Positions 1-6,482 of a DNA stretch of 64,000 nucleotides are shown here, in pieces. Position 1 is the stretch's first letter, and every line of letters begins with the position of its first letter. The notes under the pieces were generated by a model. The model saw only the letters and a program-made list of their open reading frames with translations, had not been told where the DNA came from and did no database searches. The position numbers and the translations under genes are program-made. Origin of the DNA: Fibrobacteria bacterium (GTDB lineage: Bacteria; Fibrobacterota; Fibrobacteria; UBA11236); contig JAYTSD010000008.1 of assembly GCA_043745805.1 (NCBI GenBank), positions 1 through 64,000 of the forward strand, written 5' to 3'.

Positions 1-33
1 GCCATAACGCTTTTTTGTTACTTTTTCTTTCAT
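1..33 (-). CDS. IS3-family OrfA N-terminus (partial, MKEKVTKKRYG...)
   Basis: ATG at 33 with GGAGG RBS at 39-43; basic KRY start typical of OrfA HTH proteins; only 11 codons visible. Confidence 0.6.
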   Translation of the reverse strand, partial: MKEKVTKKRYG

Positions 34-99
34 AGACACCTCCGGTCAATTGACCTAATTTACTTTTAGTAAAGTGTCCGTTAAACGGGGCGCAGATCA
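1..99 (-). mobile_element. Left end (IRL and start of orfA) of an IS3-family insertion sequence, running off the left edge
   Basis: Minus strand from 99 reads TGATCTGCGCCCCGTTTAACGGACAC...GGAGGTGTCTATG: 5'-TG terminus, TGATCT...GGACAC pattern of IS3-type IRL, strong RBS, then ORF MKEKVTKKRYG.. It interrupts the SWIM ORF at this point. Confidence 0.75.
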
Positions 100-413
100 T
101 AATTGTATTTTGCCCAATTTTGACCATAAGTTTTCTTTATGGGAGCATCTAGAGAATTCTTTAGGGTTTCGTGTGCTGACTTTAGATGGATTTCATTGTT
201 TGCACTTAGAATCTTAAATTCGACCGCATAAATATGTTTGCATTTTTCACTATATGTTTCAAAATCAGCGCAGGTACAAGTTGTCTTTTTAATGTTTACT
301 ATGTACCAACCTTTTCCGCTCGATGATGATACATGCCAATTTCCATACTTTTGGAATACTTTACGGGTTCCTGCTATTTCTAGTCCTTTCTGCTTCCTGC
401 TTTGATTCATCAT
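100..413 (-). pseudogene. SWIM zinc-finger transposase-like gene, N-terminal fragment truncated by IS insertion
   Basis: SWIM motif CTCADF..KCKHIYAV followed by KKTYGQNWAKYN, a segment I recall preceding the DDE domain in SWIM-DDE transposases; the frame then runs into the IS end and stops after six codons. Confidence 0.7.
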
Positions 414-481
414 GATCTTTTCCTTTAAGATTATATTATTAAAGATAATATAATAATTGAGAAAATTCAAATTTATTTTGA

Positions 482-510
482 TTGCATTATATTATCTTCG
501 ATTATATATT
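482..510 (+). promoter_or_regulatory. sigma70-like promoter, probably giving a leaderless transcript of the Zn-ribbon gene
   Basis: TTGCAT-N17-TATATT, with ATG 517 seven nt after the -10 and no SD sequence. Confidence 0.45.
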
Positions 511-516
511 GGTGTA

Positions 517-687
517 ATGGATAAGAATGAGTATAAACCCCCTAAAATGATCAAAATTTGGGGATGGAAATGTGTGCGGTGTGAACATGAATGGGTTCCT
601 CGGGATAAAGATGTATTACCCAAGTTTTGTCCCAAATGCAAAAGTCCTTATTGGGATAGGCCAGTTACAAAATTTAATAGACCTTGA
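517..687 (+). CDS. Small C4 zinc-ribbon protein (56 aa)
   Basis: CVRCEHEW...CPKCKSPYW, two CxxC pairs; ATG 517 preferred over TTG 457. Confidence 0.75.
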   Translation: MDKNEYKPPKMIKIWGWKCVRCEHEWVPRDKDVLPKFCPKCKSPYWDRPVTKFNRP

Positions 688-778
688 TTTTTAGGCAATT
701 TTAGGTGTTTTTGCTCTAAAAATCTGCTTTGATTACTGCTCAAATGTTCACTATATTTACTCTCATAGGGGGTAAATT

Positions 779-964
779 ATGAGGAACAGGAAGTTATTAG
801 AACTACCCATCCAAGTGGTCCGCATAAATCGAGCAGTGGAAGCTATGGCCAAAATGAAGTTCCAAGACATTAATGAAGTCGAGCTAGTTATCAAACAAAT
901 TAGATGGGATCTCTCGAAGGTCAATTTCGAATTGTGCAACCTGTTACTCAATGAGGATGAGTAG
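779..964 (+). CDS. Hypothetical small protein (61 aa)
   Basis: ATG with AGGGGG upstream; co-oriented with neighbours; no recognisable motif. Confidence 0.45.
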   Translation: MRNRKLLELPIQVVRINRAVEAMAKMKFQDINEVELVIKQIRWDLSKVNFELCNLLLNEDE

Positions 965-1003
965 TCGTATAAATAATTCTGGCTTCTAATTAGGAATGAG
1001 TTT

Positions 1004-1216
1004 ATGAGAGCTAGCGAGTTTTATGAAAACAATAAAAGATTTTCACATTATACAGTTCATAGCAAGGGACAAATAATTGACACATTTGAATCGTATGAAC
1101 AAGCTTTTAGATTTGTTGTCGCTGCCAATGATTCGAGTTTAGCAATAAGACATCCGACTGAGAAACATCCGAACGTAAAACCAATGTTTCCAATACCCGA
1201 TGAGAAGAAGGGTTAG
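1004..1216 (+). CDS. Hypothetical small protein (70 aa)
   Basis: ATG ORF with AGGA/GAG upstream; no recognisable motif. Confidence 0.5.
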   Translation: MRASEFYENNKRFSHYTVHSKGQIIDTFESYEQAFRFVVAANDSSLAIRHPTEKHPNVKPMFPIPDEKKG

Positions 1217-1452
1217 TCTTTCTTATTCCATTTCAAAAGCTTATTAGCGTCTATTTCTAAGGCATTAATAAGCTTTAGAATCATTGAAAGCTTAGGGTCA
1301 GAATCCTTTTCAATAATACGCCAAATTGTAACTCTATCAAATTCATTAGCCCGCGAAAAATTATCAACTGAGGTGTATCCAGCTTCTAAAATCAGCTTTT
1401 TGAGGTGACTTCCAAAACCATTTCTGGATTCTAATCGGCGTTTCACTGGCAT
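1213..1452 (-). CDS. XRE/Cro-CI family helix-turn-helix regulator
   Basis: FGSHLKKL...DRVTIWRIIEKDSDPKLSMILKLINALEID matches the HTH_3 pattern. Confidence 0.8.
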   Translation of the reverse strand: MPVKRRLESRNGFGSHLKKLILEAGYTSVDNFSRANEFDRVTIWRIIEKDSDPKLSMILKLINALEIDANKLLKWNKKD

Positions 1453-1482
1453 AAGAAGTTAAAAAATAGGGCAAATCGACCC

Positions 1483-1512
1483 TTGCCATGTTGCGTACAC
1501 GCAGCGTATTTT
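1483..1512 (+). promoter_or_regulatory. Putative promoter with a palindromic operator in the spacer
   Basis: TTGCCA-N18-TATTTT; spacer contains TGCGT-AC-ACGCA (1492-1503); lies between the divergent XRE and lipoprotein genes. Confidence 0.4.
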
Positions 1513-1545
1513 TAATTCTTAAACCTTCGCCATTTAGAGGTACTA

Positions 1546-2055
1546 ATGAAATTCCTTTTCGCCTTCATAGCCATTTTATTTATAGGGTGCAATCAAGCCG
1601 ACAGAAGACAAGTCCAAGAATTCATTGTCAAGGATAAACCCTTAATAATCAAAGGGTTTTATTTGGGAATGGAAATAGGCGAAGTCGAAGTATTAATAGA
1701 GCAGAAATACAACGGTGTCTTTAAACACTGCAAAACGGATAAAGAAAAAAGCATAAAGTGTGGAGACTCAGAATTCCAATTTGATGACACAGGAAAGCTA
1801 TGGAATTTCACTTTTTATAATGATGAGGTGCATAAGTTGTTTGATGTTACTGGAATGGACTTTGAAGAATTTTCACAGCAATTCGTTAATGCTTATTCAA
1901 TACCACAAATGTCTAGAAATACACAGGATGTTGGATTTGGGGTGATTCAAATCATGGAATACACAAGCCCCAATGGTTTCAAAATAAAGCTTACAAATTT
2001 GATCTCAATATCAGTTGCAAAAGTTCCCAAACTCGAAGAAAGAGGATTTAATTAA
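1546..2055 (+). CDS. Putative lipoprotein, unknown function
   Basis: GAGG RBS; signal peptide ending in lipobox FIGC. Confidence 0.7.
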   Translation: MKFLFAFIAILFIGCNQADRRQVQEFIVKDKPLIIKGFYLGMEIGEVEVLIEQKYNGVFKHCKTDKEKSIKCGDSEFQFDDTGKLWNFTFYNDEVHKLFDVTGMDFEEFSQQFVNAYSIPQMSRNTQDVGFGVIQIMEYTSPNGFKIKLTNLISISVAKVPKLEERGFN

Positions 2056-2056
2056 T

Positions 2057-2590
2057 ATGAAAATAATTTTTGCTTTACTCATAACAACAATTTTAATGGG
2101 ATGTGACTATCAAAGGTCAATGGAACCTAATGAAAAGGGTAAATTGGCTGACTATTCAGAGTTTTATAAAGGACCTGATAGTGAGTATAAAAAGATGGAG
2201 GGTCTAACAATTTACGATTCTATTCAACTAATTAAATATGAAGGGGATTTTGCTCGGATAAAGGATCTTAAATCTGGTACTATAGGTTATGTTGCTTCTA
2301 AGAATTTAAATCGACCATACACGTTGCTTGCAAAAATTTATTTCTGGTTTGCCTTTCCATTAGGTTGGTTATTAGTTCGTCCACCGTTAATGAATTGGTA
2401 TAACGGGGTTGTTACTATAATGTCTTCGTCTAATATCATTGATTATTTCTTTAAGGCGATTGGACAAAGAATATTATGGGAAGCTTTCGTTTTGGGCATA
2501 GGAGCATTGGTTGGTATTTTCGGTGGTTGGGCAATTTATATTTTGATGTTAATTGGAAAGATGAAACAAAAACAAGGTGAAGCGCAATAA
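2057..2590 (+). CDS. Putative lipoprotein with SH3-like segment and C-terminal TM helices
   Basis: MKIIFALLITTILMGC lipobox; FARIKDLKSGTIGYVASKNL resembles a bacterial SH3 motif; hydrophobic C-terminal helices. Confidence 0.6.
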   Translation: MKIIFALLITTILMGCDYQRSMEPNEKGKLADYSEFYKGPDSEYKKMEGLTIYDSIQLIKYEGDFARIKDLKSGTIGYVASKNLNRPYTLLAKIYFWFAFPLGWLLVRPPLMNWYNGVVTIMSSSNIIDYFFKAIGQRILWEAFVLGIGALVGIFGGWAIYILMLIGKMKQKQGEAQ

Positions 2591-2679
2591 AAATTCAATT
2601 TGGATCTAGAAGGTAAAATTTTAGTTCCCTTTCCTCTAATTGTATATTTTGTTTGATCTCAGCGGATAAGATTTTGGTA

Positions 2680-3612
2680 ATGGAGGAAAAATTGAAAACA
2701 CTTTTATTAATACTAGTTGGACTGGCAATGTCTTTTGGCTTGATAATGATGTCGATTTTAAAACCAACATCAGAATATTCTAGCATTGCAGTAATAGAGA
2801 CCGAGACACCAAATAAAACCACCAACGAAAACAGGAATCAAATTGATCCATTTGTCCATATCAAGGAACATGATACTCCCAAAACAAAGTATGAGACTAA
2901 AGAATTCAATTATAAGAAGGGTATCGAAACTCCAGATCAATCCATGGTCAGACTTACTGGAAATTTGGTCTATATCGGAATTTTCCAATTTATTGTTTTT
3001 GCAATTCAAGCCGTTTTCATGTGGAAAACTCTTGGTAGAATGAATAAAACTGAAGGGGAAAACAGAATTAAAGATGAACGGGGATCGAGGGCTTATGTTC
3101 ATATTCGAAAACAAAAAATTTTTGGTGACGAAATTTTCAATCGAATTATTAATTCCAAAGACCCCAACCAAACATTCCCCATTGAATCTCCACTTACCTT
3201 TGAGTTTAGAATCAGAAATTATGGAAATACTCCTGCGACTAAAGTTCATTGGTTTGCTACTGTAAAAATAATTGATGTCAATCCACTCGATGAATCGATC
3301 TTTGAAATTCCTAGAAAAACCGATGAGGAAATCGAAAGGGATTTGAAAACAAATCTTATTTCCATGGCTATTATGCCACCTAATGATACGGAAGGTTATG
3401 TCCAAAAACTTGGATTGGATGGATGCCTCATGGAAGAAGACGTTAATGGAATAAGGAATAAAAAGAAGGCTATTTTCATTTATGGAAGAATTGATTATAC
3501 CGATGTTTTTAATATTAAAAGAGAAACCAATTTTCGATATGTCTATGTTAAACCCGATGGGTACTTCAGCCAAAGACTTTCCGTATGCGAAAAAGGCAAT
3601 GATATAACATAA
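2680..3612 (+). CDS. Membrane-anchored hypothetical protein of island/prophage type
   Basis: Two TM segments, then RAYV...NYGNTPA...YGRIDYTDVF beta-rich domain. Confidence 0.7.
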   Translation: MEEKLKTLLLILVGLAMSFGLIMMSILKPTSEYSSIAVIETETPNKTTNENRNQIDPFVHIKEHDTPKTKYETKEFNYKKGIETPDQSMVRLTGNLVYIGIFQFIVFAIQAVFMWKTLGRMNKTEGENRIKDERGSRAYVHIRKQKIFGDEIFNRIINSKDPNQTFPIESPLTFEFRIRNYGNTPATKVHWFATVKIIDVNPLDESIFEIPRKTDEEIERDLKTNLISMAIMPPNDTEGYVQKLGLDGCLMEEDVNGIRNKKKAIFIYGRIDYTDVFNIKRETNFRYVYVKPDGYFSQRLSVCEKGNDIT

Positions 3613-3629
3613 AATTAGAATGGATTTTA

Positions 3630-3668
3630 ATTTCATATAAATACCTCTTGGGCTTATTTATATGAAAT
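3630..3668. repeat. Perfect 14-bp inverted repeat with 11-nt spacer
   Basis: ATTTCATATAAATA-CCTCTTGGGCT-TATTTATATGAAAT. Confidence 0.8.
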
Positions 3669-3931
3669 AAATTTAAATTGTTACATAAATTACAATTGAC
3701 ATGTATAAAGTCAAAAACATACCCCTAAAATCAAATGAATTCCCAAAAAATATTTTTCTCTGGCACAATATGGGACTAAATAAACCGCTAACACATTGAT
3801 ACATAAAGAAATAGATGGGAAAAGTTTAAGGTTTCTTAGAATTTTCTAAAAAAGATTTGGGCGAAAATACAAATATGATGTTTTAAAATGGAACGAAAAT
3901 ATTTCTGATTTTATTAATTTTTTACTTAAAC

Positions 3932-3960
3932 TTGTCTTTTTTCGGATAATAACATAAACT
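3932..3960 (+). promoter_or_regulatory. sigma70-like promoter upstream of CIRCE and tRNA
   Basis: TTGTCT-N17-TAAACT, ending 11 nt before the CIRCE. Confidence 0.55.
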
Positions 3961-3971
3961 TCTTTCAATAT

Positions 3972-3998
3972 TTAGCACTCTATTATATCGATTGCTAA
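3972..3998. promoter_or_regulatory. CIRCE element (HrcA operator)
   Basis: TTAGCACTC-TATTATATC-GATTGCTAA versus consensus TTAGCACTC-N9-GAGTGCTAA: 17/18 matches, exact 9-nt spacer. Confidence 0.8.
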
Positions 3999-4023
3999 GT
4001 GATTGATTTTTATTGGGTAAAAT

Positions 4024-4059
4024 AAAGGACCCTCCTGCTTTGAACAAGAGGGTCCTTTT
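4024..4059. terminator. Bidirectional terminator-like hairpin abutting the tRNA 5' end
   Basis: AAAGGACCCTC-N13-GAGGGTCCTTTT. Confidence 0.65.
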
Positions 4060-4060
4060 G

Positions 4061-4134
4061 GCTCTAGAAGCTCAACTGGATTGAGCAAATCTCTGCTAAA
4101 GGTTAGGTTGCTGGTTCGAATCCAGTCTAGAGCA
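4061..4134 (+). tRNA. Atypical tRNA: anticodon GCT (Ser) on a short-variable-loop, tRNA-Arg-like body
   Basis: Acceptor GCTCTAG/CTAGAGC; D stem GCTC/GAGC with loop AACTGGATT; anticodon stem AATCT/AGGTT with loop CT-GCT-AA; 5-nt variable loop; T arm GCTGG-TTCGAAT-CCAGT; discriminator A; CCA not encoded in register. Confidence 0.85.
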
Positions 4135-4444
4135 CCCAATTACAATAAACAATTTCTCATCCATTGTAATCTACACAATTAATTGTGATGATTTAATTAT
4201 AGAACGTTTCATTAAAAAAACCCACTTCGTAGAAATTATCAGTTGATACTATCACATGATAATTTCATTTTATGTAAAAAATTTCGACATCTCCGTAAAA
4301 ACCATATATCTCCGAGTATCTACACCGTTACTAATTCATCTGCCATCTCTTCTCTATATATAGTCCCACAACATGACTAAACTCTATGAACACCTTCCCC
4401 AAACGCTTTACTTTCAATTTCACTCTAAATAACCTTCGAAACAC

Positions 4445-4526
4445 TTTATAGGCATTTCTCCGAGTTTATAGGCAAATTGAGTATTTTGAGATAATGGAAG
4501 GACTTGGGAAGGGAGTTTATGGGCAA
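4445..4526 (+). repeat. Three short direct repeats (GAG)TTTATRGGCA at the island/core boundary
   Basis: TTTATAGGCA 4445-4454 and 4465-4474; GAGTTTATGGGCAA 4513-4526 matches 4462-4475 at 13/14. Confidence 0.65.
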
Positions 4527-4562
4527 GGCCAATTTTACTTGAGGTTCTAAAAGAATTTGGGA

Positions 4563-6482
4563 TTAATATTGATCGACTTTATTGTAATCGGGCTCAACTT
4601 CTTCTTTGGGATGATCTTCAATATATTTGTTTTCTACGGGAACACTCTCATTAGCTGAATCACTTGGCGTTGGTCCATTATCACTGTTAATTTCGGTGGG
4701 AGTTGGCCTTGAAATAATGGAATCCGTTTTTGCGGCTCCCGGTGTAATGAGGATTCCTGCTTTGCCGGTTATCCCCGCCGCTTTAATCTTGGCATCAGCC
4801 AAATCAAAAAATGGGCTAGAGGGGAAATTATCTCTGATGGATAAATACGCTGTTTTTGCCGAATCCAAAGCCTTGTGATTAATAGCCGTTCTAGGCATTA
4901 CATCAAAAAGCATAGCTATAACAAACTGCGCTTTAGCAGCTTCTTTGGTCTTAGGAAAATCGTTTACTACTTCATGATAACTCTTTATTACAGATGAAGT
5001 TAAATCATCTCCATTAAAGTATTTTTTTTCCGCCTCTAAAAAAAGAGTATGTGCTTTATCTTCGTCTGTTTTAACCGTCGCTTCCAAGCCCAAATTTCTT
5101 TCGGCCTGCTTGGCATATTCCGTTTTGGGAAATTTTTGTAAAACATAACGATAGAGCGAGTCGGCTCCTGATTTATCCCTTTTAAATTCATCTTTAAGAA
5201 AGGCGCGTGCATAGGCAGCTCTTTCCGTAAAGTTAGAATCCTTAAGAGTATCTTGTACTATCTTATCCAAGCGCATTAAAGCGCTGTCTATATTGTTGAG
5301 ATTAAAAACAAACAGTTCCGCAATCATAAAATCTTGCGAATGCAATTTACCCGAACTCGGTACTTCGCTACGTAGTTGCGCCAGTCGAGACAGAGCCTGC
5401 GAACGCTCTGCAGCTAGATGTCCAAATTCAAAACGATCCCCTGCTGCCGCCGCAGAATCAAAATATTGTTTCGCTTTTTTTTCATCTTTTAAGTCATTGA
5501 GTTGATAATCTCCCAAACGAAAAAAGGCTTCGGCAGAATATTGTGATTGCGGCGCTAATCGAGGCACTTCCAAAAACAATGCTATTGCCTCATTTTTTTG
5601 GCCTTGAGCAAGAAATGCTAAAGCTAAGCGAATATTGATTTCGGGTACGAATGCAGTATATAAACGATTTTTAAGCAGGGTTTTTAACTCCGTAATTTGC
5701 TCTGCTATTTTACCCATTTTAAATAAACAATCTGTGGCTAAAAGATCCGCCCGATAATGAATTGGAGTCGGTAAATTGGCAATTTCAGAGGCCTTAGCAT
5801 GCACCCGTGCTTGCTCCCAATTGGAAATCCCAAAAGCCAGTTGAGCAGCCGCATAATGAATCCGTCCACGTGCTAAGTCATCTTTAAAATCGCCTTGTAA
5901 TAATTTATTGTAAACTGCTAAAGCAACCTCTGCAGAGTCATTTTTCATTTCCAATTGCGCTAGTAAGGTTAAGGCTTCGATTTGAAATTCAGAATTTGAA
6001 TTTTCCGCCACCTTAATCAATTCTGTTTTAGCAAAGTTTAATTGCCCATTATAAAAATAGGCCTTAGCACGATGAAATCGAGCCGTGGGCATTTCGCTAG
6101 CCTGCGCAAAAAATCTTTCTAATTCATCATATTTTTGAATGGCTTTGGGATATTCACCAAGCAGTAAAAAGCTTTCCGCGATTAAGAAAATGGACTTGGG
6201 CAAATATTCTTTTTTATCGGGATACAATTCTAGAACTTTGGAGCTTTTTTCAATGCAACGATCAAGCTTTACTTTTTCTTCGGGACTTACCAAAAGTGAA
6301 TCTAAGGGATTCGCTTCGAGTCGTGCCTTTTTTAAACGCAAAGCCTGATTAAAAGCTTTGTCAGCATTGTAATACGTATTAAAGTAAACGCAGCCGCTTA
6401 GTCCAAGCATTGCGAGTATGCTTAGAACTAACCCGCTAGCTAGCAAAAGCCAGCTCTTACAAAAAGAGAATATTCGTTTCAC
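4563..6482 (-). CDS. Tetratricopeptide-repeat lipoprotein
   Basis: Lipobox LSGC followed by VYFNTYYNA; many TPR-like helical repeats; acidic low-complexity tail. Confidence 0.85.
   Translation of the reverse strand: MKRIFSFCKSWLLLASGLVLSILAMLGLSGCVYFNTYYNADKAFNQALRLKKARLEANPLDSLLVSPEEKVKLDRCIEKSSKVLELYPDKKEYLPKSIFLIAESFLLLGEYPKAIQKYDELERFFAQASEMPTARFHRAKAYFYNGQLNFAKTELIKVAENSNSEFQIEALTLLAQLEMKNDSAEVALAVYNKLLQGDFKDDLARGRIHYAAAQLAFGISNWEQARVHAKASEIANLPTPIHYRADLLATDCLFKMGKIAEQITELKTLLKNRLYTAFVPEINIRLALAFLAQGQKNEAIALFLEVPRLAPQSQYSAEAFFRLGDYQLNDLKDEKKAKQYFDSAAAAGDRFEFGHLAAERSQALSRLAQLRSEVPSSGKLHSQDFMIAELFVFNLNNIDSALMRLDKIVQDTLKDSNFTERAAYARAFLKDEFKRDKSGADSLYRYVLQKFPKTEYAKQAERNLGLEATVKTDEDKAHTLFLEAEKKYFNGDDLTSSVIKSYHEVVNDFPKTKEAAKAQFVIAMLFDVMPRTAINHKALDSAKTAYLSIRDNFPSSPFFDLADAKIKAAGITGKAGILITPGAAKTDSIISRPTPTEINSDNGPTPSDSANESVPVENKYIEDHPKEEVEPDYNKVDQY

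Follow-up and report, generated by a model that had tools for sequence, protein, structure and literature searches.

The first 64,000 nucleotides of contig JAYTSD010000008.1 of a Fibrobacteria bacterium (the window, meaning the whole stretch of DNA analysed) contain a transfer RNA (tRNA) gene whose body and anticodon disagree. The body carries the identity set of arginyl-tRNA synthetase (ArgRS), and the anticodon is GCT, which would read the serine codons AGC and AGU (AGY). The gene belongs to a recurrent class of tRNA genes that have A20, C35, U36 and A or G at position 73 together with a purine at position 34, and that are found inside or directly upstream of transposons, with at least three families of transposase represented. 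With somewhat more doubt than belief, we read it as an intact cargo gene of such a transposon, whose product would be charged with arginine and act as a low-level Ser-to-Arg mistranslator at AGC/AGU codons. An earlier sequence-only reading had proposed a natural Ser-to-Arg mistranslator; its account of the anatomy, the Arg-type body and the letters stands, and the transposon context and the recurrent transposon-linked class had escaped it. Because the gene is transposon cargo and a member of that class, the subject of the finding changes. The gene and its anticodon are placed as follows.

4061..4134, plus strand: tRNA gene with anticodon GCT and an ArgRS-type identity set (A20, C35, T36, A73), from the sequence, ARAGORN and Rfam.
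4095..4097, plus strand: anticodon GCT, which would read AGC/AGU, from the sequence, ARAGORN and identical letters in the contigs of four runs.

ARAGORN made a single tRNA call in the window, at 4061-4136 on the plus strand with anticodon gct. The Rfam model RF00005 matched 4061-4134 over its full length (model positions 1-71) with 57.1 bits against a gathering score of 29, inside the 51.1-74.6-bit range of the other tRNAs of this genome. The acceptor stem (GCTCTAG/CTAGAGC) is paired at 7/7 positions. Positions 8 and 9 are A8 and A9, the D stem has 4 bp (GCTC/GAGC), and the D loop is AACTGGATT, which supplies A14, A15, G18, G19, A20, T20a and T21. The anticodon arm consists of a 5-bp stem (AATCT/AGGTT) and the loop CT-GCT-AA, with G4095, C4096 and T4097 as the anticodon. 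The variable loop is AGGTT (5 nt), the A15:T48 pair is present, and the T arm reads GCTGG-TTCGAAT-CCAGT. A73 is followed by CC, so that the full CCA is not encoded. Positions 8 and 21 are A and T, where T and A are usual. The cloverleaf, the A15:T48 pair, the site of the anticodon, the length of the variable loop and A73 had all been described correctly before.

Over 3971-4280, the Logan contigs of four runs, all from the same study, show no letter that differs. The assembly itself may derive from two of the four; depth in the remaining two is about 3.3. Identical letters in the independent contigs of four runs show that G4095 is no slip of the assembly. An assembly or consensus error at base 4095 of a normal tRNA-Arg(TCT/CCT), a possibility raised with the earlier reading, draws what credit it has from the metagenome-assembled origin of the genome and from the depth of the two runs. 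No alternative letter is listed in any of the four, the same anticodon is found in 118 genome matches (see below) and in related elements, and we regard such an error as scarcely believable.

The assembly, which is 99% complete, holds 46 tRNA genes, including a genuine long-arm tRNA-Ser(gct) on contig C43 and five tRNA-Arg genes (acg, ccg, tcg, tct and cct). Since the host set already has tRNA-Ser(gct) and Arg tRNAs, the candidate gene is supernumerary. G73 is typical of bacterial tRNA-Ser, and the candidate has A73; nor does it have the long variable arm of bacterial tRNA-Ser (5 nt, in a genome whose genuine Ser tRNAs are 84-90 nt long). The anticodons of tRNA-Arg isoacceptors are NCG or YCU, and GCT, which reads AGC/AGU, is neither.

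The bacterial ArgRS identity set given in PMC9976931 (Table 1, arginine section) consists of A/G73, A20, C35 and U/G36, and position 34 is not included. Measured against that table, the candidate has every element (A20, C35, U36 and A73); A20, C35 and U/G36 had been pointed out by the earlier reading, and the discriminator base also agrees. At the level of sequence, the identity elements (Arg) and the anticodon (Ser codons) are therefore in conflict. Because all of the bacterial ArgRS identity elements tabulated there are present, insertion of arginine at AGY codons would be the simplest reading of the identity set combined with G34.

The nearest sequences point the same way as the identity set. 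The best DNA matches in 60 relatives were tRNA-Arg(tct) at 9/9 loci checked, the best match in the candidate's own genome is also tRNA-Arg(tct) (74%), and the top matches in a phage collection are nearly all annotated as tRNA-Arg, at about 80% identity (Streptomyces phage tRNA-Arg). A scan with the candidate's own D arm, including T21 and leaving the anticodon free, returned 34 metagenome matches and one viral match. Arg anticodons are found in 31/35 of these (TCT 15, ACG 8, CCG 3, CCT 2, GCG 2, TCG 1), and the remaining four have CGT, CTG, CGC and, in one case (L359), GCT. Given this preponderance of Arg anticodons, T21 is a normal tRNA-Arg variant and not a sign of decay. The Arg-like body thus holds up in relatives, in phages and in the T21 set.

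L359, a metagenome sequence, combines A8, T21 and GCT with a perfect acceptor stem and G73-CCA, and its acceptor, anticodon and T stems differ from those of the candidate. A8 was found in 3/35 of the T21 sequences compared with 0/117 of the TCT tRNAs with A21, counts which fit a joint change of positions 8 and 21. The sequence-only reading had hesitated between compensation and decay at these two positions, and L359 favours compensation; homologues that keep GCT, which it had named as something to look for, do exist, and one of these has A8 and T21 too. Two other Arg-type T21 tRNAs on metagenome contigs (L370 and L374) have the anticodon GCG, with G34 for CGY codons where ACG is usual.

The candidate tRNA is transposon cargo; it is neither a host gene nor an attachment-site (att) remnant. 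The features of the element and its flank are the following (C31 is a second contig of this genome, G000).

1..4531, no strand: AT-rich insertion, the part lying in the window, with a GC content of 26-37% (host flank 38-45%); it runs on across the contig break into C31:1-1355.
81..470, minus strand: N-terminal part, with a SWIM zinc finger, of a DDE_Tnp_1 transposase whose C-terminal part lies at C31:54-395.
1213..1452, minus strand: small helix-turn-helix protein with weak matches, cargo of the insertion.
4024..4058, no strand: G+C-rich hairpin with 14-nt arms that are 93% complementary, followed by TTTT and ending 2 nt before the tRNA, from a repeat search and folding.
4513..4531, no strand: terminal inverted repeat (GAGTTTATGGGCAAGGCCA), with its partner at G000:C31:1337-1355 (17/19 match).
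4532..4538, no strand: 7-bp target-site duplication ATTTTAC (GTAAAAT on the other strand), with the second copy at C31:1356-1362.
4563..6482, minus strand: host TPR lipoprotein gene, the first host gene past the insertion, with no tRNA beside it in relatives.

The whole insertion is about 6.7 kb long and has the host TPR gene on one side and an rlpA-like gene on the other. The genes downstream of the TPR orthologue in relatives map to C31:1450-3076 here, and the AT-rich DNA is therefore an insertion running leftward from 4531. GTAAAAT is exact beside both inverted repeats. The middle of the transposase falls in an unassembled multi-copy repeat at the contig ends, and only the SWIM N-part and the DDE C-part are present. 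Window positions 1-99 and G000:C31:1-99 share identical overlaps of 95-99 nt with the ends of contigs C2, C23, C24, C25 and C37, and of C22, C27 and C45; a multi-copy SWIM/DDE_Tnp_1 insertion sequence (IS) breaks the assembly at many places. A related full transposase copy lies on C46, followed by a similar terminal motif. The tRNA is the last gene before the transposon end and points outward, 3.6 kb from the transposase and on the opposite strand. The 50 nt upstream of it fold with -18.9 kcal/mol. Between the tRNA and the transposon end, positions 4232-4266 hold a 17-nt palindrome that is nearly perfect, and both strands have promoter-like hexamers there.

This anatomy bears on the possibility, left standing by the earlier reading, that the gene is an att remnant, or else a tRNA-Arg gene of the host that an integrase-type element has used and damaged. 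Integration into tRNA genes is common, and many of the broken viral GCT and ACT matches described below resemble remnants. Here, however, the cloverleaf is whole, no second copy of any tRNA part longer than about 17 nt was found in the genome or nearby, and the seven island open reading frames (ORFs) scanned contain no integrase. A tRNA native to the host locus was considered and rejected, as a tRNA lies within about 1.5 kb of the TPR orthologue in 0/11 relatives. The combination of inverted repeats and a 7-bp duplication is the mark of transposase chemistry, not a tRNA-derived direct repeat. The evidence weighs against this explanation, which we consider highly improbable, as it does against an error at base 4095.

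We looked for similar genes with a pattern consisting of the GGAT D loop, GAGY, YT-GCT-AA, a short variable region and the T loop, leaving the acceptor stem unconstrained. The scan covered one genome per species (185,579 species) and 2.9 million viral contigs, and returned 118 matches (117 stretches) in the species genomes and 21 in the viral contigs. The carriers of GCT tRNAs are mostly metagenome-assembled genomes. As the anticodon loop is fixed by the pattern, conservation of GCT is judged from L447 (see below), L359 and related pairs alone. All genomes checked for this (5/5) have normal CCT and/or TCT tRNA-Arg genes besides the GCT copy.

Clustering of the ORFs around all GCT matches identified an IS1-family transposase as the dominant neighbour, at 16 loci and as fragments at three more. 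All 16 IS1-linked GCT tRNAs have 7/7 acceptor stems. At 12 of the IS1-linked loci (among which L058 and L165 are the same element) the tRNA lies 50-250 nt upstream of the transposase on the same strand, and the order, all on one strand, is hairpin, tRNA, the transposase's own TTGACA-type promoter, and transposase. IS1595-family transposases are found at six further GCT loci, and at L163 and L075 a SWIM/DDE_Tnp_1 transposase, the window's own family, lies just downstream of the GCT tRNA. Carriers known in culture include Hansschlegelia zhihuaiae S113 (L123), whose tRNA has a 6/7 acceptor stem and an IS1595-family neighbour. As a control, an IS1-family transposase was found at 0/119 viral TCT loci and at 0/30 loci with a YCT anticodon in one phylum; the figure for viral ACT loci is 3/24, with direct adjacency at L216. 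Neither tblastn nor a profile search found an IS1-family transposase in the present genome or window.

A 3297-bp unit is common to L058 and L165, which come from two genomes, at 99.97% identity. The unit has 18-bp perfect terminal inverted repeats and is flanked by different 8-bp duplications, and it holds the tRNA, the transposase and three ORFs. This is direct proof of such a tRNA as transposon cargo. Exact 10-mers gave no useful terminal repeats for single IS1 modules, and the ends were found only by comparing L058 with L165.

The same question was approached from the transposase side by sampling 30 transposase loci in one phylum and 21 in another, 49 in total after two query loci had been left out. 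A tRNA-like gene lies upstream on the same strand within 600 nt in 4/49 loci (2/29 and 2/20), and the tRNA is thus an optional cargo of a subset of elements. The named cases are L380 (degenerate), L447 (GCT) and L446 (Ser-type), and none is listed with an ordinary match of body and anticodon. L447 is a GCT tRNA with C33, outside the reach of the GCT pattern, and was recovered independently by this search. L446, on contig C1 of the unpublished genome G747 (publication of which needs the depositors' permission), is a 97-nt class-II tRNA with an IS1-family transposase about 590 nt downstream on the same strand. It has a Ser-like D arm, a long variable arm and G73, combined with the Arg anticodon GCG. 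By its sequence features L446 is the mirror case, a Ser identity on an Arg codon. L389 is a 76-nt 'tRNA-Ser(gga)', too short for class II and on the strand opposite to a copy of the IS1-family transposase; it is possibly another conflict of body and anticodon. An IS1 sub-family with an N-terminal zinc-ribbon extension (L380 and L074/L140/L161) has a conserved long hairpin (GGCCCC...GGGCC) between tRNA and transposase, and in L380 the position of the tRNA is taken by a degenerate 'agc' tRNA-like sequence.

Among transposon-linked copies the cloverleaf is preserved by numerous compensatory changes. In an alignment of 22 transposon-linked tRNAs, which includes the candidate, L359, L447 and the ACT copy L216, 97.8% of the stem cells are paired and 17/21 pairs vary on both sides, values reached by 0/500 shuffles; part of the set had been picked for intact stems, the IS1-linked members not so. 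In the related genomes G061 and G062, related GCT copies differ by three compensated T-stem pairs, and their anticodon arms are identical.

These observations have to be set against an alternative in which the tRNA is an inert passenger, that is, one of the tRNA-Arg(UCU/CCU) copies frequent on transposons and other mobile DNA, with position 34 mutated, barely expressed or poorly processed, and without effect on decoding. We hold this to be unlikely; several of the points in its favour count directly against a mistranslator. Acceptor stems with 7/7 pairs were found in 52/116 evaluable genome GCT matches and 7/21 viral ones, compared with 117/117 evaluable TCT tRNAs. Put the other way, 66/118 genome matches (two not evaluable) and 14/21 viral matches have no intact acceptor stem, against 0/117 evaluable TCT tRNAs. 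More than half of the GCT matches thus have broken stems; judging from these counts, a large part of the GCT class consists of broken remnants and a substantial part is intact. Viral contigs hold ACT as often as GCT (24 stretches against 21), and 11 of the ACT copies have 7/7 acceptor stems. A scan with a TCC pattern gave six matches. The YCT pattern in one phylum gave 103 matches in 61 genomes, three of these in the unpublished genomes G088 and G113, and if that phylum's 1.7 YCT matches per genome held generally, GCT would make up about 0.04% of the YCT copies. The window's insertion looks recent, as its target duplication is exact, which would have left little time for decay.

Other observations that count against our reading concern the body. 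A8 is rare. In phage contigs the GGAT D loop is not confined to Arg tRNAs, and scans with TTT and TGT gave at least 118 and at least 119 matches, respectively; genuine phage Lys and Thr tRNAs have this D loop too, so that neither scan can serve as a neutral control, and the term 'Arg-type' therefore rests on the whole identity set and the nearest neighbours. With the anticodon masked, the best similarity of the candidate is 0.80 to GCT tRNAs and 0.78 to TCT tRNAs. Descent of the candidate from a 'GCT family' was rejected on this ground, as masked similarity fails to separate GCT from TCT neighbours, and with the candidate no closer to GCT than to TCT tRNAs, common descent of the class is not established. 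Some intact GCT loci adjoin housekeeping genes, such as those for SufB, RecA and trigger factor.

What an inert passenger does not readily explain is the state of the transposon-linked copies. The perfect acceptor stems of the 16 IS1-linked tRNAs differ in sequence, compensation is frequent (as in the three T-stem pairs swapped between G061 and G062 around the same anticodon loop), GCT turned up again when the search started from transposases (L447), and A8, T21 and GCT recur together in the otherwise divergent L359. A neutral copy would be unlikely to hold an identity-preserving, harmful anticodon across transposases that are only 40-65% identical.

Mistranslation also has to be reconciled with how the elements and the host use AGY codons. 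Self-recoding of the transposases, with AGY read as Arg, was considered and rejected: in 16 IS1-family transposases, 45% of AGY codons align with Ser, as do 42% of TCN codons, and Arg is absent from the six commonest residues aligned to AGY. The sole column with R in free transposases against an AGC-coded S concerns a single linked copy. AGY is used at 20/53 conserved Ser columns in linked transposases and at 56/119 in free ones, so there is no avoidance. Because AGY encodes conserved serines of the linked transposases, a strongly active Arg-tRNA(GCU) would damage the element's own transposase, which counts against our reading unless expression is weak. Genome-wide recoding in the host was likewise rejected, as S, A or T stands opposite the 16 AGY codons of the TPR gene in 11 orthologues, as it does opposite TCN; the earlier statement that AGY remains Ser in this host is confirmed by the same comparison.

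The signals around the gene count against a mistranslator and in favour of an inert passenger. We found no sigma-70-like promoter placed to drive the candidate tRNA (three sites, compared with 6.2 expected from shuffles), the hairpin and T run 2 nt upstream would stop read-through transcription into the tRNA, and there is no RNA run among those listed for the stretch. A terminator-like hairpin and no recognisable promoter fit the weak expression that would be needed, given that the elements' own transposases use AGY for conserved serines.

The recurrent hairpin suggests a further alternative, in which the tRNA does not decode at all. The hairpin-tRNA module would then be an insulator and RNase P/Z processing site, or the tRNA would be an Arg donor or decoy, and the anticodon would matter only in being non-Arg. 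The recurring order of hairpin, tRNA, own promoter and transposase is what such a module would look like, as is the degenerate tRNA-like sequence at the same place in the related element L380. Hairpins with a minimum free energy of -15 kcal/mol or lower in the 50 nt upstream were found for 10/18 transposase-linked GCT tRNAs and 11/40 other intact GCT copies, compared with 6/30 YCT and 11/116 viral TCT tRNAs, an enrichment that is only suggestive because the sets are not alike in G+C content. tRNA-like sequences with the same loop and no acceptor stem also occur upstream of SPFH/Band-7 genes at five loci. The window tRNA, however, cannot insulate the transposase, as it points outward from 3.6 kb away on the other strand. 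The module is also dispensable, given how few non-query transposase loci (2/29 and 2/20) have an upstream tRNA within 600 nt, and a processing signal would need neither A20, C35, U36 and A/G73 nor a perfect acceptor stem. On balance, we find a non-decoding element decidedly improbable.

If the candidate is a low-level mistranslator, it would be transcribed at a low level and matured, and the ArgRS of the host would charge it with arginine without reading position 34. The host enzyme should suffice, because ArgRS ignores that position. The Arg-charged tRNA(GCU) would then compete with the genuine tRNA-Ser(GCU) at AGC/AGU, and the outcome would be low-level Ser-to-Arg mistranslation. More speculatively, proteome stress or a mutator-like effect may benefit the element, by analogy with the mutA and mutC tRNA alleles of Escherichia coli. 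These alleles of glyV and glyW, attributed to Murphy and Humayun in 1997, are reportedly anticodon-mutant tRNA-Gly genes with a mutator phenotype, in which a single anticodon change that keeps the charging identity is said to cause low-level missense mistranslation with cell-wide consequences. They are reportedly laboratory-selected chromosomal alleles, whereas the present genes are natural, mobile and recurrent. In a wider form of the idea, IS1, IS1595 and SWIM/DDE_Tnp_1 transposons would spread Ser/Arg-swapping tRNAs (ArgRS bodies with GCU or ACU, and the mirror case L446 from the unpublished G747), and these would form a mobile module by which controlled mistranslation is imposed on the host, a portable device of the stress, mutator or addiction type. 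We hold this wider form to be quite doubtful.

The nearest sequence relatives of the candidate are the tRNA-Arg(UCU/CCU) genes of phages and islands, which are likewise supernumerary and on foreign AT-rich DNA; they read Arg codons, whereas the candidate, with G34, reads Ser codons. IS elements with passenger genes (transporter IS) are likewise bounded by inverted repeats and carry a transposase and extra genes. A closer functional parallel may be the tRNA(ProX)/ProRSx system of Streptomyces and relatives, which combines Pro identity with non-Pro anticodons (PMC10404621, PMC11415595), and whose tRNA has unusual core positions (A33, A15-A48 and G21; PMC11415595). The candidate resembles tRNA(ProX) in that identity and anticodon disagree, in being an extra gene beside a full tRNA set, and in having odd core positions (here A8 and T21). 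It differs in that Arg would be placed at Ser codons, in being carried by a transposon, and in that mistranslation is here a sequence-based prediction. It also differs in having no dedicated synthetase gene in the visible part of the element: no synthetase domain was found among the seven island ORFs scanned, two ORFs at C31:405-1192 lying outside that scan. Anticodon switching and tRNA gene recruitment, in which a point mutation in the anticodon of one scaffold creates a new codon specificity, are described in PMC3868979. In the cases described, the switch stays within one amino acid or identity changes too, whereas the candidate should stay Arg on a Ser codon.

In open-access full text we found no description of a tRNA as cargo of an IS or transposon, and nothing on an Arg-identity tRNA with a GCU anticodon. 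Natural mistranslating tRNAs are known from very few bacterial cases, and of those found in print by the same search none is Arg/Ser and none is transposon-carried. If tRNAs of this class are charged and used, mobile elements could alter sense-codon decoding in any host they enter, which would bear on the origin of codon reassignments and on mistranslation as a stress or mutator mechanism. For annotation, the consequence is that such genes are filed as 'tRNA-Ser'. The class is also a testable set, with dozens of natural sequences that have the same conflict of identity and anticodon, some of them in precisely bounded transposons.

The scans returned three further groups of sequences. Intact or near-intact GCT tRNAs in Acidobacteriota (L098, L107, L119, L135, L142 and L167) occur with a divergent, often tandem family of proteins of about 190 amino acids; 0/8 of the proteins beside these six tRNAs matched Pfam, and their neighbours in a protein atlas are hypothetical clusters only, partly viral. 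The tRNA-like sequences upstream of SPFH/Band-7 genes (L077, L091, L092, L108 and L122), from different phyla, have D, anticodon (CTGCTAA loop) and T arms with only 3-5 acceptor pairs, and may be a cis element or remnants. Finally, in two near-identical viral families the D/anticodon/T core is complete and the 3' strand of the acceptor stops short after CTTGA; they comprise GCT copies (L168, L171-L174, L176-L178, L182, L185, L186 and L188) and ACT copies (L202, L205, L213, L215, L218 and L219). They look like phage attachment-site copies of tRNAs, yet have a non-Arg anticodon.
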